From Patescibacteria group bacterium (lineage in GTDB: Bacteria > Patescibacteriota > Saccharimonadia > Saccharimonadales > OMJO01), in assembly GCA_038064135.1 (NCBI GenBank), contig JBBTTS010000014.1, positions 2,036 to 39,952 of the forward strand: DNA of 37,917 bases, written 5' to 3'. Made by a program: the position numbers and the translations under genes. A model generated the notes under the pieces. It did no database searches and was not told where the DNA came from. It saw only the letters and a program-made list of their open reading frames with translations. Positions 2-24,378 of the stretch are shown piece after piece. Numbering within the stretch: position 1 is the first letter of the stretch; each line of letters begins with the position of its first letter.

Positions 2-178
2 GACTGTTTGATTTCCACAAATATTATTGAGTCGGGCCTGGATATCCCCAATGTCTCGTTGGTAGTTAATTATTCTACACCAGAATCATACGACGACTAT
101 GTACACCGGATTGGCCGAACAGGTCGGGCTCAGCAAATTGGCAATGCCTTGACCTTCGTTTTAGGTTATTCCTCATAA
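2..178 (+). CDS. DEAD/DEAH-box RNA helicase, C-terminal fragment (5' end outside window)
   Basis: Frame 2 reads ...[49 protein letters not shown]...* ; contains helicase motif [10 protein letters not shown]; TAA stop at 176-178. Confidence 0.8.
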
Positions 179-186
179 ATTAATTC

Positions 187-564
187 TTGCACAGAAGCCA
201 ATTAAGAGTATTATTCAAAATTGTGAGAGATAATACCCAGGATGACTTTGAACATCAGGCTGGAACTGGTGAAGGAATTAACCCAGAAGTATTCGGCGCG
301 TCAATAATTCCATTTCCTGATCTTTTGGGCAGAAAATTACGAACCCTTACGAATGACGAAGTAGAGGCTACCTTCGCGACCGATCAAGGTGTGCACAAGC
401 TACACCCAGAAGATGTAGAGCTTAGTCATGGTGAAACTCAAGGCACCTTTTTAGTACGACATAAAAAATTAGGAATTATACTGGGTGCGATGACGGGTGC
501 CGCAGTATTAGGAGTTGCAAGTACCGTAGTTTATAAACGACGTCAAAATTCTTCAGGGAAATAA
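187..564 (+). CDS. hypothetical protein with C-terminal TM anchor (non-ATG start, weak)
   Basis: 125-codon ORF, with no in-frame ATG until codon 101; hydrophobic C-terminal segment LGIILGAMTGAAVLGVASTVVY followed by KRRQ; 12-nt convergent overlap with the next gene. Confidence 0.3.
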   Translation: MHRSQLRVLFKIVRDNTQDDFEHQAGTGEGINPEVFGASIIPFPDLLGRKLRTLTNDEVEATFATDQGVHKLHPEDVELSHGETQGTFLVRHKKLGIILGAMTGAAVLGVASTVVYKRRQNSSGK

Positions 565-2049
565 GCTGTTAATAAATTGGAAACGCTTTTGAGCCGCGGC
601 ACTAGTAGCAGAACCGTCGGATAATCCTTTTGTAGTGTAGAAGTAGTCGTTTAAGGTTATTTCTTTGAATCCCACAAAGGTGTTTCCGGTGTAACTATTA
701 CCTACGGCCGATAATGAAGTGGAGCATGATGTTGAAGATGGCAAAATTGTGTCAAACCTAAAGTCATTTCCGAAACAGTGAGCGTTTGTTTCAGCTCCTG
801 AAACACCCAAGAACCCCCAATGCTGGATCACTTTAAAGCGGGGCATTTTGTCGCGAAAATCAATTAGTGCTTGACGATACCAATTCCCTTTAGCAGCTGG
901 AGCAGCAGCTGTTTGTGCAGCGGTATGCGGCGTATTGCAGTTTGGCGAGACACAAGGATAGTACTCACTAGAACTCCATTCAGCAACAAGTAAGGGTTTG
1001 TTACCTTTGGCTTGTTTTGGTTCTGTTGCACCGTTTAATTTACGGACATTTCCTTTACAAACAGGGTTATTAGTGACTGTGCAGGCAACACCTGTAAAAT
1101 CGCGAGTAGCCCATTGATACCATCCCGTTTGTCCACCTTTTTGTGTGCCGTCAGGGTTTTTGTTCATTGTGACTTGTTCTATGGTTAGCCAATTACTAGG
1201 GTTTTCGTCGGTGAAGAAATTATACGGGTCTACCCCGTTGAAGTCAGTGCATTGATCACCAGGATAAATTTCAGCACCACGCGAGTTATTCGACCAATAA
1301 TGCGGAATTGGTACTGCGACTGTTGAGAACTTGGCTTTGGTTGCGCCCTTCGTCTTAAATAGTTCATAGATTGCGCAAACCATATCACCATAATCTTGTC
1401 CTGTATTCCCGCTGCCAGCGGTGGCGTTAAACTTACCACTAGCTTCTGGTTCGTGCTGGACTGTAACAATAAATGGCCCGGGCATATCTCTTTGCATATT
1501 AGTTGCCAAATTTTCAATGCGTTGTCTTTTTTTCGATCCGACGGTTCGAAGTTCGTCAGAAATTGCCTTCCACGTTCCCCAGCCGTTTTGAATATTCCAA
1601 GAAGTATGAACAACATAACCTTTATTCGCATAACTAAGCTCTTTTGAAAAACTAATTTCAGTATCTGGGTTTGACGGCATTGAGGAGTTAAATAGTCGGA
1701 TAACATCGAATTGTCTACCTAAAGCTGCTTCTGCCTGAGTGGTCTTTGTGTCGCTTTCGTCATGGCGGTTCGAGCCAAACAGGATGCCAGCTGCTGGCGG
1801 CGGGGGTGTGGCTGATTGATTAAATTGCACCAAAGAGCCTCCCGAGGCAGTTGTATCGGAAATTTTTAAAGCAGGCGTGGCTACGGTGCCCGATTCAGCT
1901 TCGCTTGATGTAGAATTTGTTGCAGCACGGGAGTTTATCAAGAACGCAATACCTACAAAAGCAAACAATGCGCAGAAAATATATACTTCTTTTCGGAATA
2001 ATACTTTTTTAAGATTTGTCATAATTTGCTTTTTAGCCATAACCCTCAT
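553..2049 (-). CDS. secreted/membrane-anchored clan GH-A-like glycoside hydrolase (GH26/GH5-like)
   Basis: N-terminal hydrophobic anchor VYIFCALFAFVGIAFLI. Candidate acid/base motif VTVQHEPEA and nucleophile-like LLVAEWSS are spaced as in (beta/alpha)8 clan A hydrolases. Many Cys, consistent with export. Confidence 0.55.
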   Translation of the reverse strand: MRVMAKKQIMTNLKKVLFRKEVYIFCALFAFVGIAFLINSRAATNSTSSEAESGTVATPALKISDTTASGGSLVQFNQSATPPPPAAGILFGSNRHDESDTKTTQAEAALGRQFDVIRLFNSSMPSNPDTEISFSKELSYANKGYVVHTSWNIQNGWGTWKAISDELRTVGSKKRQRIENLATNMQRDMPGPFIVTVQHEPEASGKFNATAGSGNTGQDYGDMVCAIYELFKTKGATKAKFSTVAVPIPHYWSNNSRGAEIYPGDQCTDFNGVDPYNFFTDENPSNWLTIEQVTMNKNPDGTQKGGQTGWYQWATRDFTGVACTVTNNPVCKGNVRKLNGATEPKQAKGNKPLLVAEWSSSEYYPCVSPNCNTPHTAAQTAAAPAAKGNWYRQALIDFRDKMPRFKVIQHWGFLGVSGAETNAHCFGNDFRFDTILPSSTSCSTSLSAVGNSYTGNTFVGFKEITLNDYFYTTKGLSDGSATSAAAQKRFQFINSLFP

Positions 2050-2135
2050 GTTTTACGTAAATATTAGCATATCTACGGTCTATTTTTAAAATCAAAGAAT
2101 AGTAAATTAAACGTAGGCACATTAGAATATTAATT

Positions 2136-2633
2136 ATGGCTGGTTATAAAGGGCACATCGCTGGGGCTGTTGGAGTAAACATGGCCTACGTGCTAACACT
2201 GACTGTTTTGCCGTGGGATATTTTAGACAATACCGGTGGATTATTTGCTAGCTGGCAGTTTTTAGCTGCTTTGTTCGTAATTTCGATGTTATTTGGATTG
2301 TGGCCCGATATCGACACAAACTCGAGGGGGCAGGATATTTTTTTTGGGGCGGCTTTTTCGGCTAATATTATTTTAATTTGGCAAGGCTATATCGAAGCAT
2401 CGGCCTATTTAGGATTAATGGCCATGACGCCAATAATCGGCAAACATCGTGGCTGGACGCATAGCAAATGGGCGATGGTTTTTATCCCATTACCAGTAGT
2501 TTTAGTTTCATATTTTTACAGACCTGAAATGTTAGTCACGGCATTAGTTATATATGGTGCAGCGGTTTCGGGTTATTTTAGTCATTTACTTTTGGATGGA
2601 CGCATCACAAGGCTAATTAGAGTCAAAACCTGA
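2136..2633 (+). CDS. membrane-bound metal-dependent hydrolase, YdjM/DUF457-like
   Basis: Starts MAGYKGH, has WPDIDT and WTHS and a C-terminal SHLLLDG; multi-TM. This pattern is typical of the LexA-regulon YdjM family. Confidence 0.7.
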   Translation: MAGYKGHIAGAVGVNMAYVLTLTVLPWDILDNTGGLFASWQFLAALFVISMLFGLWPDIDTNSRGQDIFFGAAFSANIILIWQGYIEASAYLGLMAMTPIIGKHRGWTHSKWAMVFIPLPVVLVSYFYRPEMLVTALVIYGAAVSGYFSHLLLDGRITRLIRVKT

Positions 2634-2696
2634 GGCAGGGATAAGCTTCCCAATTACACTTGCCAAGACGATGCTCTCGTGCCACTATAAATATAA

Positions 2697-3758
2697 GTGA
2701 AAACGCTAAAGCTTGATGGCAAGCAACAAAAGGCACTCAACTTCGCCGTTATCGGGGCTCTAGTTGTTGGTTTTATTATATTAAGACGTTATTTGGCAAT
2801 CATTATTACAGCCGCAATTGCTGTTTACATTTTTTATCCAATTTTTAATTGGCTAAAGAAAAAAACCAAACGTGAAGGTGCTTCGGCCGCCTTAACTTTG
2901 GTCTTAGTGCTTTTGCTTGCAATAGTCCCACTTACACTTTTAATACTGGTAACTTTGCAGCAATTTTCTGATGCGATATCCAATGCTATAAACTATATAG
3001 CCTCAAATAACCTTGGGGTAGTGGCGCAAAGCTCCATAGATTCTGTAAACGTGTTCTTAGAAAAAATAACTTTTAACACCCTTCATTTAGATTATGAAAC
3101 CTTAAAAAACTTTTTCTCTACTTATGGAAGCACAATCGCATCTTTTTTTGTTAATTTCTTACGCACTTCACTTGGAAGTGTTCCTGGCATGATCACCAAT
3201 TTAATACTTTTTGTTTATGTTTTTACAGCCTTAATGCTCCACCACCAATCTTTAATTAAATATGCTAAAGATCTAAACCCGCTAGGTAACGAAGTCTCAA
3301 ATTTGTATTTTTCACGGGCTGCGGCCATGACTAAGGGAATGGTTAGGGGGCAATTTATTATTGCTTTTGCTCAAGGTATCACTGGAGCTTTTACACTTTG
3401 GGTGGCTGGAATTGAGTTTTTTGCACCCATGGCATTAATATTGAGTTTATTATCAATAATTCCACTTGGTGGCGGAATTGTAACTGTACCGATTGGGTTA
3501 ATATTAGCCTTAACGGGTAATTTTTGGGGTGGTATTTTTGTTTTGGCATCACACTTTTTAATTGTTACCAACATAGATAATTTACTACGTCCAATATTAG
3601 TACCAAAAGAAGCAAGGTTAAACTCGGCCCTAACTATGCTTTCGGTGTTTTCGGGTATAGCATTGTTTGGATTTCTGGGAATTGTAATTGGCCCCGTTTT
3701 AATGATATTAATTGTTACGACAATAAACGTATATCTACAAACCAAGACAGCTAGTTAA
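2697..3758 (+). CDS. AI-2E family transporter (PerM/UPF0118)
   Basis: GTG start; about 8 TM segments; family-typical NIDNLLRPILV segment near the C-terminus. Confidence 0.85.
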   Translation: MKTLKLDGKQQKALNFAVIGALVVGFIILRRYLAIIITAAIAVYIFYPIFNWLKKKTKREGASAALTLVLVLLLAIVPLTLLILVTLQQFSDAISNAINYIASNNLGVVAQSSIDSVNVFLEKITFNTLHLDYETLKNFFSTYGSTIASFFVNFLRTSLGSVPGMITNLILFVYVFTALMLHHQSLIKYAKDLNPLGNEVSNLYFSRAAAMTKGMVRGQFIIAFAQGITGAFTLWVAGIEFFAPMALILSLLSIIPLGGGIVTVPIGLILALTGNFWGGIFVLASHFLIVTNIDNLLRPILVPKEARLNSALTMLSVFSGIALFGFLGIVIGPVLMILIVTTINVYLQTKTAS

Positions 3759-19487: not shown

Positions 19488-21248
19488 GTGATTCGGCTGC
19501 GTTGGCTTGCTTCGCTGGCGCTACTCGTAAGCTTTTTACTAACACCGTTGGTTGCTAGTGCAGATCTGCAAGATTTCACCATTACCAACTTCGATGCCGA
19601 CTATACACTGACCACAGAAGATCCCCAAGGGCTGTTAATAGTCAAAGAGCGTATCGACGTAGTTTTTACCAATAATAATCATGGGATTGAGCGGGCTCTA
19701 CCAGATAAGTATAAGGGCAAAAAACAGAACATTAGTAATATTCAAGCCTCCAAGGCAGACGGCAGTGCTTGGCCATTTAGCACCTACACTACCAATGATA
19801 ACTTGGTAATACGAATTGGCGACCCAAATCAGACAGTAACTGGCCCGCAAACATTTATAATTAACTACCAACAAGAGAATGTAATTAGTTTTTATGATGA
19901 CCACGATGAACTTTATTGGGACATTAACGGCGACCAATGGGCACAGCCCTTTACTAAAGTCACTGCAAACTTCCATTTGCCCACCGCAGTAAAATTAAAC
20001 CAGACCAAATGCTTTGCCGGCAAGTACGGCGAAAGTTCGCAGCAATGTAGTGTTTCAAAAACAAGTGACGGTATAAAAGTCGAAACGCTAAGAGCACTCC
20101 AGCCATACGAAACCTTGACTGGGTTAATTAGCATACAAAAAGGCAGTTTTGCCCAACCAACTAGGGTTGATTGGCTGAAAGAAAACCTCAAAAATATATT
20201 ATCGTTTTTGGCGTTGCCGATACTAGTTTTATTGCCTAGTTTTCGGTATTGGTATAAAAATGGCAAAGATTCAAAAGGTCGAGGCGTTATTGTTTCTCAG
20301 TATGACGCACCTGACAAATTGCGACCAGCAGAAGTTGGGACATTAGTTGATTACCGAGTAGACAACAGAGATATATCGGCAACAATTATAGACCTAGCAA
20401 TACGCAAATATTTAAAGATTATTGAAACCAAAAAAGATAGATTTTTGTTAAAAGACAAGTTGACATACGAGTTTGAGCTAATAAATCCAAGTACCACAGG
20501 ACTAAAAAGCTATGAACGAGATATTTTATGGGGAATATTCGGCGCCAAAACCGAAGTTGACATCCAGGTGGGTCAAATAGTCAACGTCAATGATTTAAAG
20601 GGCAAGATGTACAAAGTCATTCAGGAAGTCCGAGAAACGGTTAGTTTGTCTTTGGCTCAAGAAGGATATTTTAATGGAAGCCCCCTTAGGGTGGCTGGAA
20701 AGCTTTTTCTTGTCGTAACTGCTGTAGTCATCTCATTATTTGTTTTTGGCGCTATTTTGGGAATATGGTATGTTTTTGGCGGTTTAATAACCACGGCGTT
20801 CTTGATAATCTTTGCAATGTTGATGCCCAAAAGAACCGAAAAAGGAGTGATGGCAAAAGAACATATTGAAGGTCTGAAGCTATATTTGTCAGTTGCCGAA
20901 AAAGAAAGATTAAAGATGCTTCAGAGCCCGGATTCTCCCTACGCAAAAAAATCTTTAGGGCCGAAGCGAACCGTAGAATTATTCGAGAAATTGTTGCCAT
21001 TCGCCGTAGCCCTAGGCGTAGAAAACGCTTGGGCAAAACAGTTTGAAGACATCTACAAATCACCTCCTGATTGGTATAGCGGAAATTGGACTACCTTTAA
21101 TGCGTTGGTTTTTGCCAACAGTTTGTCGACCTCGTTAAATACAATGGGTGCTAATTTTTCACCACCAAGTAACTCTGGCAGCAGTGGATTTTCGGGTGGC
21201 GGAGGCTTCTCCGGCGGTGGTGGTGGAGGTGGTGGTGGTGGCTGGTAG
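19488..21248 (+). CDS. DUF2207-domain membrane protein with poly-Gly C-terminus
   Basis: The GTG at 19488 gives a signal peptide IRLRWLASLALLVSFLLTPLVASA (the track's GTG at 19467 overlaps pheT). Large exported domain, TM cluster, and a C-terminal SGSSGFSGGGGFSGGGGGGGGGGW typical of DUF2207. Confidence 0.8.
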   Translation: MIRLRWLASLALLVSFLLTPLVASADLQDFTITNFDADYTLTTEDPQGLLIVKERIDVVFTNNNHGIERALPDKYKGKKQNISNIQASKADGSAWPFSTYTTNDNLVIRIGDPNQTVTGPQTFIINYQQENVISFYDDHDELYWDINGDQWAQPFTKVTANFHLPTAVKLNQTKCFAGKYGESSQQCSVSKTSDGIKVETLRALQPYETLTGLISIQKGSFAQPTRVDWLKENLKNILSFLALPILVLLPSFRYWYKNGKDSKGRGVIVSQYDAPDKLRPAEVGTLVDYRVDNRDISATIIDLAIRKYLKIIETKKDRFLLKDKLTYEFELINPSTTGLKSYERDILWGIFGAKTEVDIQVGQIVNVNDLKGKMYKVIQEVRETVSLSLAQEGYFNGSPLRVAGKLFLVVTAVVISLFVFGAILGIWYVFGGLITTAFLIIFAMLMPKRTEKGVMAKEHIEGLKLYLSVAEKERLKMLQSPDSPYAKKSLGPKRTVELFEKLLPFAVALGVENAWAKQFEDIYKSPPDWYSGNWTTFNALVFANSLSTSLNTMGANFSPPSNSGSSGFSGGGGFSGGGGGGGGGGW

Positions 21249-21264
21249 CCAAGAAATTCTACTG

Positions 21265-21293
21265 TTGGAATAAATTGATAAAAATTGTATAAT
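21265..21293 (+). promoter_or_regulatory. candidate sigma70 promoter TTGGAA-17-TATAAT
   Basis: Perfect -10 at 21288-21293 with 17-nt spacing to TTGGAA; located just after the DUF2207 stop and facing the ORF-poor region. Confidence 0.4.
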
Positions 21294-21418
21294 ACTACAG
21301 CTTTTGGTCGAGAAATGCTCCCAAATAGCACCTTAACAGGTACAGAATCATAGTATTTTAGTGATTGCGCATGTAACCGACTTATTAAAATTTTGATTTG
21401 TTAGCTACATGTGTAATC

Positions 21419-21486
21419 TAGGACGTATTTGGAAGGATTATGGTCTTATGTCCTAAAGTCCGAGAGTTCGAGTCTCTACGACCACT
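21419..21486 (+). other. structured leader element: 6-bp stem (TAGGAC/GTCCTA) followed by a T-arm-like hairpin and tRNA 3'-end-like tail
   Basis: GAGAG-TTCGAGT-CTCT(A) hairpin at 21462-21478, then CGACCAC. There is no matching 5' acceptor strand or anticodon arm, so this is not a tRNA. Confidence 0.3.
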
Positions 21487-21634
21487 TGTTCTGATTGGTT
21501 CACAAAAATGCTGTTCACAGCTAAGTATACCACCCGGTAATACTAGGGCAACAATGTTTACTTAGTCATTATGGACGACGTAGTAGCCAGCAAAATGTTA
21601 CCCCGATCCCTACTCACCCAAGGAGGTGATTTAC

Positions 21635-21787
21635 ATGACCTTTCGAGGTCGATGCGGTGGTCGCAAGAACCGTCCGTCGGCTTGCCCAAAATGTAAGGGT
21701 AAGTTGTCTAACGCATTTGGGAAGTTGACTTGCAGTCATTGCGGCAACTCGGGCACATGCCCAGGCTGTCCCGACTGCGGTCGGTAA
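21635..21787 (+). CDS. 50-aa basic, Cys-rich (8 Cys) zinc-ribbon-like mini-protein
   Basis: Too short for the ORF track. Preceded by AAGGAGGTGAT (11 nt perfectly complementary to the 16S 3' tail) 4 nt before the ATG. Translation: MTFRGRCGGRKNRPSACPKCKGKLSNAFGKLTCSHCGNSGTCPGCPDCGR, with CPKC, CSHC and CPGCPDC. Confidence 0.6.
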   Translation: MTFRGRCGGRKNRPSACPKCKGKLSNAFGKLTCSHCGNSGTCPGCPDCGR

Positions 21788-21914
21788 CCCGAGGGGGCGT
21801 GACAGGACTATGAGAACAATTTGTGCCCCAAAAGGCCTTATTTTCACTTGTACCTGTTACGTCACCAATGTAAATTTACAAAAAATATTAAGTTTTTATT
21901 GTTGACGTCGGCTA

Positions 21915-21943
21915 TTGATTAATAGGTAAAAACGTTGTAAACT
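21915..21943 (+). promoter_or_regulatory. candidate promoter TTGATT-17-TAAACT
   Basis: Spacing and hexamers read directly; AT-rich context upstream of the tRNA-like element. Confidence 0.3.
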
Positions 21944-22096
21944 GGTCATCGTAATTGTGGTTGAGTTTAATTCGATTCCCCTGTTACGAACGTTGACAGA
22001 TGAAGAAACTACCCATTGAAAATGTTCCATGGGACGGTGCTGTTTGAAAATATAAAGTAGTTAAACAATACCGTCTCTATGATGAGGCAAATTTCA

Positions 22097-22175
22097 CGGG
22101 TAGAGCCAAAGTATCTGGGTTGCGGGCGCGACACTTGATATGGTTGGTAAGTTGGTTCGATTCCAGCCTACCCGA
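22097..22175 (+). ncRNA. tRNA-like element (acceptor stem, D-arm-like and T-arm intact; no anticodon arm)
   Basis: CGGGTAG/CTACCCG perfect 7-bp acceptor plus A73; T-arm GTTGG-TTCGATT-CCAGC; D-like GCCA-AAGTATCTGGG-TTGC. The 27 nt where the anticodon arm should be has no 5-bp/7-nt-loop solution. Confidence 0.45.
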
Positions 22176-22192
22176 CGAAGGGGTATTGGATT

Positions 22193-22214
22193 AGCAAAAA
22201 AGACGTTTTTTGCT
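22193..22214. terminator. A6/T6 hairpin AGCAAAAAA-GACG-TTTTTTGCT (weak, possibly bidirectional terminator)
   Basis: 9-bp perfect stem read directly, 18 nt after the tRNA-like element. Confidence 0.35.
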
Positions 22215-22223
22215 TCTTCAAAA

Positions 22224-22486
22224 CCCTTCGGGGGAGTATCGGACCAATACGGGTCCCCACCTCGCCGAGGTTCGATACTCCCACCTTCGCGGAGTGCTTG
22301 ACAAATCGTTATTACGGTTCACGCCCCCCTTTCGTGGATCGGTGGTCGTCAAGCACTCCGCATTAAACCGGCCCCCCAAAGAGCCGGAAACTGGGGAGCG
22401 GGGAGCGCCAAGCAAATCAACCTAAGCATTGGGCTGGAATGCAAAGGTTGGAGTAGCTTTGGCTGCCCCCCGCTTCCCTTCGAATA
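22224..22486 (+). ncRNA. unassigned GC-rich structured RNA: four consecutive helices with 5-7 nt linkers
   Basis: H1 22232-22241/22273-22282 (10 bp perfect, encloses GGACC/GGTCC). H2 22290-22302/22348-22360 (13 bp perfect) plus an inner 9-bp stem with loop CCCCCCTTT. H3 22368-22372/22383-22387. H4 22393-22478 (an 86-nt hairpin). Four G-U pairs on the plus strand would be A-C mismatches on the minus strand. Confidence 0.5.
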
Positions 22487-22605
22487 GGACAACCATTTTG
22501 CCCTTTAACGGCTAAATAAATCTTCATCTGTCCTTCTCTCTTAGCGTATTTAATTAAGTACTCTGAGCCAGAAGAAATTAAATTAACATGTTAAGCTTAA
22601 TTTAA

Positions 22606-24378
22606 ATGAAGCAAATTATTAAAATATTAAGTACCGCAAAACACCTTTGGCGTTACTATCTAGCTATAGGTGTCTTCACGGTATTTCTCAGCATATTAAC
22701 CCTTTCGCAGCCCATGTTCAGCGGCTGGGCTATAGACGAAATGCGAAAAGGCACATCGGCGCGGGTTGACTATGTAGTGATGCTGGCCATAGCAATTTTT
22801 GTTATTGATCTAATGCACAATTTGTTTAGCAACATCAGTGGATACTTGGGCGACCAAATGGCCGTTAAATTAAATCGGTCACTCAGCCTTAGCTACTACA
22901 AACATATACTTAGCTTGCCGCAAGGATATTTTGACACCGAGCTTTCCGGCAAAATAATCAATCGACTCAATCGTTCCATATTGCAAATCACAAATTTTAT
23001 GCAGATGATGAGCAATAACTTCTTGCAGTTTATTTTCAGTACTATTTTTTCACTGGCCATTGTTGCAATTTATAGTTGGCAAGTAGCCCTAATGTTGTTT
23101 GCTCTTTATCCAATTTACATATGGATGACTTTTCGAAGTAGCGGTACATGGCAGGCTTATCAGGCAAAAAAGAATCATTTTACAGATGTGGCTAGCGGTA
23201 GGTTTGCCGAAGCAATTAGCCAAGTAAGGGTAGTTAAAAGTTTTATCCAAGAAGCACGCGAACTTACCTTTTTCGATCATCTGCAGAAAAAAGTGGTTAA
23301 AACTAACGCGCCACAGTCGAAGTTTTGGCACGTACGTGACGTGCAGCGGCGACTGGTTTTAAACGTAATATTTTTAGCGGTTTACATTTATATTTTTAAG
23401 GGTGGCGCAACGGGCCAATTTACACCCGGTCAAGTTGTGGCACTGATTTTGTACGCATCTCAAATTAGGATACCGATATTCACGATTAGCTTTTTAGTGG
23501 AAAATACTCAAAAAGCCGTAGCCGACAGTAAAGATTACTTCGAAATATTAGAATTAAAACCAGAGATAAAAGATACTCCAAATGCCAAAAATATAAATGT
23601 AATTGCCGGAAGTATCGAGTTTAAAAATGTTGGATTTAGTTATGACAATAAACAAACCGTACTTAGAGATATTTCCCTAAAAATCAAGCCAGATAGTAAG
23701 GTAGCACTAGTCGGCGAAAGCGGTGAAGGTAAAACAACGCTTACAAATTTACTTATGAGATTATATGAACCCAGGCTTGGTAGTATTTCAATTGATGGCC
23801 AGGATATATCACAAGTAACTCAAAATAGCCTAAGGTCGCAAATCGGTGTAGTTTTTCAGGACCCGGCGCTATTTAGTGGCACAATTTTCGAAAATATAGC
23901 TTATTCTAATTCAAATGCTACAAAATATGACGTAATTAAGGCAGCCAAGGCCGCCAACGCTGACGATTTTATTGAACAGTTCGAAAATGGATATGATACC
24001 GAGATTGGTGAGCGTGGCTTAAAACTGAGTGGTGGACAAAAGCAGCGAATTGCAATTGCCAGAGCACTCTTGAAAGACGCGCCAATATTAGTGCTCGACG
24101 AAGCCACCAGTAGCTTAGATAGCAAAAGCGAAGCCATGGTGCAGGAAGCTTTAAAACGACTTATGAAAGGTCGGACAACCATTATAATCGCCCACAGACT
24201 AAGTACAATTCAGCATGTGGACCAGATTGTAACTATAAAAAATGGCAAGATTGATGAAGTTGGGTCACCAAGCAAACTGTCAAAATCTGATGGCATTTAT
24301 GCTCAACTACTTGAACTGCAACAAACCAAAAACGAAACCACCAAAAAGAAGTTGCGTGCCTACGATATTGCTAGCTAG
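22606..24378 (+). CDS. ABC transporter, fused permease/ATPase (MsbA-like type I exporter)
   Basis: Six-TM N-terminal half; Walker A GESGEGKTT, signature LSGGQKQR, Walker B ILVLDEATS, H-loop IAHRLST. Confidence 0.93.
   Translation: MKQIIKILSTAKHLWRYYLAIGVFTVFLSILTLSQPMFSGWAIDEMRKGTSARVDYVVMLAIAIFVIDLMHNLFSNISGYLGDQMAVKLNRSLSLSYYKHILSLPQGYFDTELSGKIINRLNRSILQITNFMQMMSNNFLQFIFSTIFSLAIVAIYSWQVALMLFALYPIYIWMTFRSSGTWQAYQAKKNHFTDVASGRFAEAISQVRVVKSFIQEARELTFFDHLQKKVVKTNAPQSKFWHVRDVQRRLVLNVIFLAVYIYIFKGGATGQFTPGQVVALILYASQIRIPIFTISFLVENTQKAVADSKDYFEILELKPEIKDTPNAKNINVIAGSIEFKNVGFSYDNKQTVLRDISLKIKPDSKVALVGESGEGKTTLTNLLMRLYEPRLGSISIDGQDISQVTQNSLRSQIGVVFQDPALFSGTIFENIAYSNSNATKYDVIKAAKAANADDFIEQFENGYDTEIGERGLKLSGGQKQRIAIARALLKDAPILVLDEATSSLDSKSEAMVQEALKRLMKGRTTIIIAHRLSTIQHVDQIVTIKNGKIDEVGSPSKLSKSDGIYAQLLELQQTKNETTKKKLRAYDIAS

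Follow-up and report, generated by a model that had tools for sequence, protein, structure and literature searches.

Leader and trailer sequences of ribosomal RNA (rRNA) and transfer RNA (tRNA) operons pair into processing stalks that are cut by RNase III. Bacterial co-transcripts of tRNA and messenger RNA (mRNA), such as that of the tufB operon, provide tRNA-like processing signals, and among type I toxin-antitoxin systems the hok mRNA is held untranslatable by pairing of its 5' and 3' regions until the 3' end has been processed. The AapA1 mRNA of the AapA1/IsoA1 system is reported to behave in this way too (PMC5416894), and plant mitochondrial t-elements and the mascRNA of MALAT1 are likewise tRNA-like processing signals (PMC1920247 and PMC8457004). 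Here we compare with these systems a 1,357-bp gap in a Saccharibacteria genome, flanked by the stop codon of a DUF2207 gene (at 21248) and the start codon of an ABC exporter gene (at 22606). The gap is part of a 37,917-nucleotide stretch of contig JBBTTS010000014.1, hereafter called the window, to which coordinates refer unless they are given for a related locus. It probably consists, as sequence comparison suggests, of two tandem members (units A and B) of a family of small, self-contained transcription units that is specific to Saccharibacteria, and every unit is closed by a long-range helix that we call P1.

As in rRNA and tRNA stalks, a long-range helix between leader and trailer surrounds a structured RNA, sometimes with a tRNA inside, but in the clamped units this helix spans just 11-15 bp and the cargo is a small-protein mRNA or a non-coding RNA. 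The units resemble GOLLD, ROOL and OLE RNAs in their length of several hundred nt, their many helices and their association with tRNA sequences, but their interior is poorly conserved between lineages, only their ends are family-wide and half of them are mRNAs. No GOLLD, ROOL, OLE, HEARO or other Rfam 15 family matched the window at its gathering score, and our literature searches found no description of the clamped-unit family. Like hok/Sok and AapA1/IsoA1 (PMC5416894), the units combine a small open reading frame (ORF) on a long folded mRNA with pairing of the ends and a half-buried ribosome-binding site, and they too occur in tandem copies, with a patchy chromosomal distribution and ORFs missed by annotation. 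In contrast to type I toxins, the encoded proteins are soluble zinc-ribbon or charged proteins, and some units have no ORF or an ORF of 150-178 aa; moreover, P1 sits inside the 5' hairpin, with the closing hairpin outside it, and not at the very ends of the RNA as in type I mRNAs. With t-elements (PMC1920247) and mascRNA (PMC8457004), unit B shares an embedded acceptor/T-arm minihelix that is retained while the anticodon region is free to decay. It differs from them in that its module is optional in the family, lies inside the clamped domain and is only putatively cleaved.

Clamped units in the gap and in related genomes

Alignment of the unit flanks reveals a common plan, which runs 5' to 3' from a promoter through a 5' hairpin, a linker, the 5' strand of P1, a cargo of 450-1000 nt and the 3' strand of P1 to a closing hairpin. 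Across the family, the 5' hairpin follows the pattern GG(nn)GAG-loop-CTC-CC, the short linker after it is conserved as ..ACG..CTTT, and the closing hairpin is a clear intrinsic terminator in many relatives. The 5' strand of P1 is composed of T[G/A]ACAG and a variable run, while in its 3' strand the exact complement of that run is followed by CTGT[C/T]C and then at once by the hairpin; about 20 sequence versions of P1 are known, and complementarity is kept in them. Unit A extends from its promoter at 21265-21293 to a closing hairpin at about 21908, and unit B from a promoter-like site at 21915-21943 to about 22574 (Table 1). A hidden Markov model (HMM) of the 5' end, built from 15 units, matches unit A at 21287-21345 (E=6e-7) and unit B at 21955-22005 (E=5e-7). 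About 20 units were matched by this model, all of them on the + strand just upstream of the orthologue of the ABC gene. Comparison among relatives establishes this anatomy, its recurrence and its + strand orientation.

The alignments also establish that the two strands of P1 covary. When 27 units were placed in an ungapped anchored alignment, 93.4% of cells were paired, vs 72% in shuffles, both sides had changed at 9 of the 13 pairs, and the 83 double-change cells (24 ± 4 in shuffles) were reached by none of 500 shuffles; in slid registers, pairing was only 32-46%. This set had been chosen partly by complementarity. In a retest that was blind to complementarity, 17 of the 20 HMM-defined units had a partner scoring at least 10.5/12, mostly beyond all 200 shuffled arms, and two of the three failures were anchoring errors. 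The near-invariant core covaries as well, reading GCAG/CTGC in one related locus (L204) and ACGG/CCGT in another (L263), and P1 was recovered unprompted both by single-sequence thermodynamic folds and by RNAalifold.

Complementary arms could also be a feature of the DNA, if P1 belonged to an invertible switch, a cassette recombination site or an element resembling miniature inverted-repeat transposable elements (MITEs), with recombination keeping the arms complementary. The arms are almost purely Watson-Crick and combine a conserved core, ACAG/CTGT, with a variable extension, like recombination sites; the cargo is swappable between genomes, and the element is variably present, occurs in tandem copies and is where several contigs break. 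We nevertheless find a DNA-level origin quite unlikely. All tRNA and tRNA-like modules and all small ORFs are oriented with the outside promoter and the closing hairpin, and 26 of 28 interior similarity pairs are co-oriented, the other two being internal palindromes. As regards an inverton, the cargo was co-oriented in all units examined and neither a recombinase nor a transposase gene was found in the neighbourhood; as regards a MITE or transposon, the arms vary and covary, and within 1.27 Mb of related loci copies were confined to the ABC site and to a second site between pheS and yajQ. Furthermore, the arm sequence differs by lineage at one chromosomal site, which fits vertical descent with compensation, viral contigs have no match to the 5' motif or the mini-protein of unit A, which also speaks against a phage-borne element, and the inner helices of unit B have undergone G-U substitutions of the RNA type.

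The original prediction, made from the letters of the window, had seen in the gap a single ornate RNA, about 1.3 kb long and non-coding, with tRNA-like modules embedded in it, and had drawn an analogy to GOLLD and ROOL. Its observations are confirmed, every element that it listed being present at or close to the place given. The remaining intergenic gaps in the window measure about 200 bp or less. Composition is patchy, with two rich patches (a G+C fraction of 0.575 at 21600-21799 and of 0.53-0.57 at 22100-22499) against about 0.38-0.45 nearby, and the locus is indeed RNA-dense, folding with z = -7.8 over 22080-22500 and z = -10.3 over the whole of unit B relative to shuffles. ORFs of 65-92 aa lie in the GC-rich patches on both strands; because they overlap one another and have neither a ribosome-binding site nor a homologue, it was fair to say that the gap contains no credible ORF of 60 codons or more. 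A consensus scan recovered the promoter that had been proposed at its 5' end, and the fold shows the A6/T6 hairpin as well as all four GC-rich helices. All five heptamers TTCGA(D)(W) lie on the + strand where they had been placed, and their supposed enrichment proves modest (5 observed vs about 0.6-0.9 expected from the shuffled or observed density of the window; Poisson P of about 2e-4 to 2e-3), with only two of the five inside T-arm-like hairpins. As the prediction had it, no known RNA family accounts for the locus: Rfam gave no match in the entire window at gathering scores and only chance-level matches in the gap at E<=10, and ARAGORN called no tRNA and no transfer-messenger RNA (tmRNA) in the window. 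The locus is conserved in relatives, with covariation.

Strong structure, the tRNA-like modules and possible read-through, given that no strong terminator separates the units, would all suit a single large RNA. We regard it as very unlikely: the gap holds two separately closed domains in tandem, each with a P1 and a promoter-like site of its own, unit A is an mRNA, unit B stands without unit A in L262, and a zinc-finger unit stands alone in L267. The analogy with GOLLD and ROOL fails on membership, with no Rfam match.

Plain DNA similarity between the 1.36 kb and 79 syntenic loci returned nothing; homology surfaced only on alignment of the two closest loci, L001 and L002, together with motif inspection. 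A scan of genome contigs with a degenerate 17-nt motif was unspecific (120 chance matches), a metagenome scan with the ABC protein found no relative above 73%, and Rfam detected in ten related loci only one tRNA and one cyclic di-GMP (c-di-GMP)-II riboswitch. The close relatives of the ABC exporter are all Saccharibacteria metagenome-assembled genomes, and the Logan assembly ERR3858115 holds a stretch identical to ours. In most genomes, the region upstream of ABC is shorter than 100 bp, and in about one quarter to one third of them it is ORF-poor and measures 0.6-1.5 kb. Since the gene upstream of the gap varies (DUF2207, pheT and others), the extra DNA travels with the ABC side. L001 and L002, the closest species-level relatives, have a homologous element of about 750 bp. 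In L262, the nearest relative found, unit B follows the DUF2207 stop codon directly and has a better promoter; the zinc-finger unit of L267 lies between DUF2207 and ABC, L268 has neither unit, and L022 and L035 have tandem units as well.

Two further contexts were found. A motif scan of 185,579 genomes located the scaffold between divergent pheS and yajQ genes in L254 (1772-2489, - strand) and L260 (6948-7700, + strand), where it carries a membrane-anchored protein of 150-178 aa with one transmembrane helix; P1 reads GACAGAATAGAGAA/TTCTCTATTCTGTC in the former and TGACAGAGTAGAG/CTCTACTCTGTCA in the latter. A protein-based scan with a four-sequence alignment identified in L273 a compact zinc-finger unit of 325 nt, which has a P1 and stands in unrelated surroundings. 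In L260, the pheS-pheT-DUF2207 block lies between the two copies of the scaffold, which are oppositely oriented. The contigs of L262, L266, L024 and L235 end inside the element upstream of ABC; repeats or tandem units could be the cause, or else variation among strains or low coverage of the locus.

Several points weigh against reading the gap as two self-contained clamped units. Both are known here only through sequence comparison and predicted folds, and about 10 kb was sampled per genome. G-U pairs occupy just 2 of 351 cells of P1, which fits a DNA-level inverted repeat too, the scarcity being partly an artefact of the procedure by which units were found. The helix is short for an RNase III site. 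Neither unit showed a canonical intrinsic terminator in our scan, and the unit B promoter is weak (8/12), so that the two could be co-transcribed. Lastly, a tRNA-like module is missing from the units of L067, L013, L017, L267 and L273 and, with so many units doing without it, is not essential to the family. In this reading P1 would enclose the cargo in one clamped domain. Together with the 5' hairpin and the closing hairpin it would shield both RNA ends, and the clamped fold may hold the cargo in a defined, translationally restrained state. That the clamp stabilises or gates the RNA is something we infer with moderate to low confidence.

Table 1. Features of units A and B and of the exporter side (positions in the window).
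Feature	Position	Strand	Basis
Unit A promoter TTGGAA-17-TATAAT	21265-21293	+	10/12 in scan; promoter of related units at equivalent position
Unit A 5' hairpin, GG(nn)GAG-loop-CTC-CC within a longer stem	21300-21329	+	minimum-energy fold
Unit A P1 5' strand TAACAGGTACA	21334-21344	+	perfect 11-bp complement of 21849-21859
T-arm-like hairpin, 7-nt loop TTCGAGT (21467-21473)	21458-21482	+	sequence and fold
Hairpin TCACC/GGTGA over part of ribosome-binding site AAGGAGGTGA	21614-21629	+	fold
Unannotated gene for 50-aa Cys-rich zinc-ribbon-type protein, MTFRGRCGG...CPGCPDCGR	21635-21787	+	strong ribosome-binding site; homologues
Unit A P1 3' strand TGTACCTGTTA	21849-21859	+	complement of 21334-21344
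Unit A closing hairpin, AT-rich, at terminator position of relatives	21860-21908	+	fold; no clean T-run
Unit B promoter-like TTGATT-17-TAAACT	21915-21943	+	read from sequence, 8/12; below scan threshold
Unit B 5' hairpin, contains GGTTGAG...CCCC	21949-21989	+	consensus fold with L262
Unit B P1 5' strand GACAGATGAAGA	21995-22006	+	perfect 12-bp complement of 22521-22532; minimum-energy and consensus folds
Hairpin GGGACGGTG...TACCGTCTC between P1 and tRNA-like module	22031-22077	+	equivalent hairpin in L001/L002
tRNA-derived module: acceptor CGGGTAG/CTACCCG, T-arm GTTGG-TTCGATT-CCAGC, rod arm	22097-22175	+	fold
Hairpin GAAGGG...CCCTTC enclosing A6/T6 hairpin	22177-22229	+	fold
Four GC-rich helices (22230-22285, 22289-22361, 22368-22387, 22393-22478)	22230-22478	+	fold
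Small hairpin ATTTtGCC...GGCtAAAT just 5' of P1 3' strand	22494-22516	+	GGCTAAATAAATC motif common to L001/L002
Unit B P1 3' strand TCTTCATCTGTC	22521-22532	+	complement of 21995-22006; folds
Unit B closing hairpin CTTCT-CTC...GAG-AGAAG, at family terminator position	22533-22574	+	folds; no canonical T-run
Palindrome of the ABC gene TTAACATGTTAA (22583-22594) and -10-like TAAGCT 8 nt before ATG	22583-22597	+	seen in unit-less relatives

Unit A and its zinc-ribbon-type small protein

The original prediction listed a Cys-rich mini-ORF among the parts of the locus. This ORF is preceded by AAGGAGGTGA (21620-29) at an ideal spacing. It is no oddity within a non-coding RNA: homologues and codon statistics establish it as a true gene for a small protein, which is the principal cargo of unit A. 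A first subfamily of homologues occupies the equivalent position, on the + strand, in the units of L067, L012, L013, L017, L204 and L267, with the invariant pattern CxxC...TCxxCxN...C. Among five genes of this subfamily, differences at the three codon positions number 173, 136 and 327, and the ratio of nonsynonymous to synonymous differences (pN/pS) is 0.25-0.48; on this comparison, the mini-ORF is under purifying selection. The closest homologue, a called protein of 49 aa (P0121), is 69% identical to the mini-protein of the window and was found only by exhaustive phmmer, word-indexed protein searches with either the window peptide or the family alignment returning nothing. It is encoded in an ordinary operon of a GC-richer organism (L274), where we found no clamp around the gene.

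Other units fill the same slot differently. Those of L033, L035, L229, L022 and L016 encode a second subfamily with the pattern CxxCxGxG, and in the L023 group and L018 the equivalent position is taken by a charged helical mini-protein. The cargo peptides are either basic and Cys-rich or charged and helical, and none has a hydrophobic stretch. With two CxxCxGxG motifs in 41-45 aa, the mini-proteins of L033 and L016 are reminiscent of the DnaJ-type finger (PF00684) and of Anti-TRAP (PF15777), but they reach only 20-23 bits against PF00684, below its cut-off of 32.7 bits, and the window protein is nearest to Zn_ribbon_6. That match (E=0.004) is its best in Pfam, where its zinc-ribbon, DnaJ-finger and Anti-TRAP matches are all sub-threshold, and a search of the PDB matched DnaJ no better than at E=0.075. 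At 40-45% identity (phmmer), the core of the window mini-protein is also resembled by two larger proteins, P0122 and P0123, of 300-360 aa, which consist of three to five CPKCxGxL...VCExC zinc-ribbon repeats, Pro/Ala-rich linkers and a C-terminal transmembrane helix.

P1 of unit A is formed in the minimum-energy fold of 21300-21915. In the long leader of unit A, a CACC further 5' pairs with part of the ribosome-binding site, as it does in the units of L067, L012 and L267, whose homologous ORFs are likewise preceded by a CACC...GGAGGTGA arrangement. The T-arm-like hairpin that the original prediction had located at 21419-21486 does exist, at the narrower position given in Table 1; it has no acceptor stem or cloverleaf, and neither ARAGORN nor Rfam calls a tRNA there; it is probably a decayed T-arm. 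The closing hairpin gives rise to a spurious microRNA-like Rfam match. Two candidate signals were rejected: TTGACA in the P1 5' strand is not followed, by eye, by a consistent -10 box 17 nt downstream that would make it a -35 box, and the GGA of a possible CsrA site is not conserved.

A small ORF on such an mRNA brings us to the main rival explanation, in which the units would be modules akin to type I toxin-antitoxin systems: the mRNA would be untranslatable until 3' processing, an antisense RNA would act as antidote, and in unit B we would be looking at a copy that has decayed or lacks the ORF. P1 provides long-range pairing between 5' and 3' regions, and the ribosome-binding site is half buried, in part by the hairpin at 21614-21629, as might be expected of an mRNA behaving like that of AapA1 (PMC5416894). 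Moreover, the ORFs, at 50 aa or less, are overlooked by gene callers, copies stand in tandem in the window and in L022, the units are patchily present at one locus among relatives, and a promoter-like site on the - strand (21551-21524) is antisense to the leader of unit A. However, the zinc ribbons and charged helical peptides that serve as cargo are hydrophilic, unlike typical hydrophobic membrane toxins, and the same scaffold can carry a protein of 150-178 aa or no ORF at all and yet be under structural selection. Nor did a conserved antisense promoter emerge, and four promoter-like sites were found in the region vs 2.5 expected by chance. On balance, a toxin-antitoxin function seems unlikely to us. 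The - strand site itself reads TTGCCC-16-TATACT, with a TG extension, and could mark the start of an antisense RNA or be due to chance.

Unit B and its tRNA-like module

Unit B is, on the evidence of its ortholog in L262, a selected non-coding RNA of the + strand. The two sequences are about 71-81% identical (blastn, MAFFT), against 83% identity for ABC, and their consensus fold comprises 157 predicted pairs of which none is broken, 17 have changed in a compensatory manner and about 15 differ by G-U-only changes. Because the latter would be A-C mismatches on the other strand, they fix the + strand for unit B. Every pair of the four GC-rich helices is kept in L262, several of them through changes on both sides or through G-U pairs, and the A6/T6 inner stem has been swapped by compensatory changes for a GC-containing one, with its GACG loop kept. 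Similarly, L001 and L002 differ by 16 compensatory pairs, five of which belong to one 7-bp stem. The promoter-like site of unit B is aligned with TTGCAA-17-TATACT in L262. Remnants of a zinc-finger ORF were sought in the three frames of unit B, and none was found. As its cargo, unit B would carry a minihelix of acceptor and T-arm that is derived from a tRNA and, 3' of it, five or six GC-rich hairpins.

As the original prediction stated, the locus does contain tRNA-like modules, and that of unit B is built from an acceptor stem of 7 bp, a long rod arm and a T-stem of 5 bp. In the fold, the rod-like arm replaces the D and anticodon arms and ends in a 4-nt loop. ARAGORN finds no tRNA in this module, and RF00005 does not match it even at E<=10. 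It is aligned in position with bona fide tRNAs of L001 (a tRNA-Lys of 65 bits) and L002, and in L262 its acceptor and T-arm are almost unchanged while the rod arm is wholly different in sequence and still paired. In eight more loci, ARAGORN calls odd tRNA-like genes at an equivalent relative position. In most relatives the anticodon loop is abnormal, with ATT, with "anticodons" of 4 or 2 nt or with a length of 8 nt, and the stems are kept by compensatory changes. The modules are not neighbouring tRNAs but cargo of the clamped-unit family. As for their details, tRNA-like genes with such loops lie at 1892-1967 in L002, 5341-5417 in L018 and 705-776 in L260, and about 500-590 nt upstream of ABC in L023, L061, L202, L205 and L206. 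Their cloverleaf stems are good, with compensatory changes within the L023 group; some anticodon loops have 8 nt, with "gaat" or "ttca" called as a 4-nt anticodon, and another has a 2-nt "ca".

Two identities for these modules could be excluded. A permuted tmRNA is ruled out by the negative results of ARAGORN and Rfam; the acceptor strands are just 79 nt apart, and the ORF of unit A, unlike a tmRNA tag ORF, comes with a ribosome-binding site and an ATG of its own. Integration-site scars are ruled out by the two T-arms, which are unrelated in sequence, and by the absence of an integrase. Decaying junk, left over from tRNA genes and an integrated element, would explain why the tRNA-like modules are degenerate and the locus variable among relatives, but structure is preserved through compensatory changes, the ORF of unit A is under purifying selection, there is no integrase and neither T-arm is a repeat of the other. 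This explanation is largely refuted and in our judgement scarcely credible. The minihelix may be kept because the enzymes of tRNA processing (RNase P, RNase Z and the CCA-adding enzyme) still recognise it, in which case it would be a processing handle that separates the leader from the downstream RNA. By analogy with known tRNA-like signals, we suggest this role with moderate to low confidence.

The exporter side and what the units may mean

Units lie nearly always directly upstream of ABC and in the same orientation, with a closing hairpin in between, and other clades have different leader-like elements at this place, for example the c-di-GMP-II riboswitch of L026. The units could, in principle, be cis-regulatory leaders of the exporter, that is, attenuators or riboswitches. 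We consider this highly improbable. With or without units before it, the ABC gene is preceded by a promoter-like box and a palindrome of its own, so that the units are not its leader: the same arrangement is seen in the unit-less relatives L003, L054, L055, L070, L073 and L239. In addition, about two thirds of ABC orthologues have no unit, the scaffold also occurs away from any ABC gene, and the interior is not conserved in the manner of an aptamer or other sensor. Comparison among relatives thus establishes that the units are independent of the ABC gene.

The palindrome, conserved as (C)TTAACATGTTAAG, overlaps TAAGCT 8 nt before the ABC start, in L017 as well, and has the look of an operator, on a promoter that would be leaderless or nearly so; in many relatives, TATACT, TAAGCT or TACAAT lies 7-12 nt before the ABC ATG. 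The riboswitch of L026 (3407-3490; 55.4 bits, above the gathering score) is located between DUF2207 and ABC, before an ORF of about 330 aa. In another clade (L050, L215, L217 and L028), a conserved leader about 60-130 nt upstream of ABC, GGAAGTGTGA..GTGGAGAC..CTTCCGTAAACYGGGCC....GCCCRGTTTTT, resembles a small structured element with a terminator at its end, and L050 has repeated AAGCGGATTT motifs besides. Upstream of its element, L001 contains at least four tandem paralogous genes of about 300 aa (70-3354; MTQFHYPLPE...LGVRPEVRG), one of them apparently frame-shifted. The DUF2207 proteins of the clade (window 21180-21248, L260, L262, L003, L054 and others) end in a conserved poly-glycine tail, ...GGGGGGGGGW.

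Tentatively, the family might be viewed as a modular RNA chassis, made up of the 5' hairpin, the covarying clamp and the closing hairpin, into which unrelated cargoes are exchanged, the minihelices being processing handles or decoys for tRNA-directed enzymes. Among the cargoes would be zinc-ribbon mini-proteins and a helical one, a membrane protein, and non-coding RNAs derived from tRNAs. If true, this would make the family a gene cassette of a new class that operates at the RNA level, or else a new conflict system, like type I but with effectors that are not membrane peptides.

For anyone reading AT-rich genomes, the locus holds a caution, in that GC-rich patches that resemble RNA can be mini-ORFs rich in Cys, Gly and Arg. 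An apparently empty 1.36 kb of a compact, host-dependent genome resolves into two defined genes. One of them encodes a small conserved protein, largely overlooked by gene callers and in protein databases, and the RNA architecture around them is absent from Rfam and has unusually clean comparative support. Saccharibacteria are difficult to grow and their RNA biology is poorly understood, and a clamp that joins a transcript end to end raises the questions of how these bacteria stabilise, process and gate their transcripts, and why relics of tRNAs persist in them.

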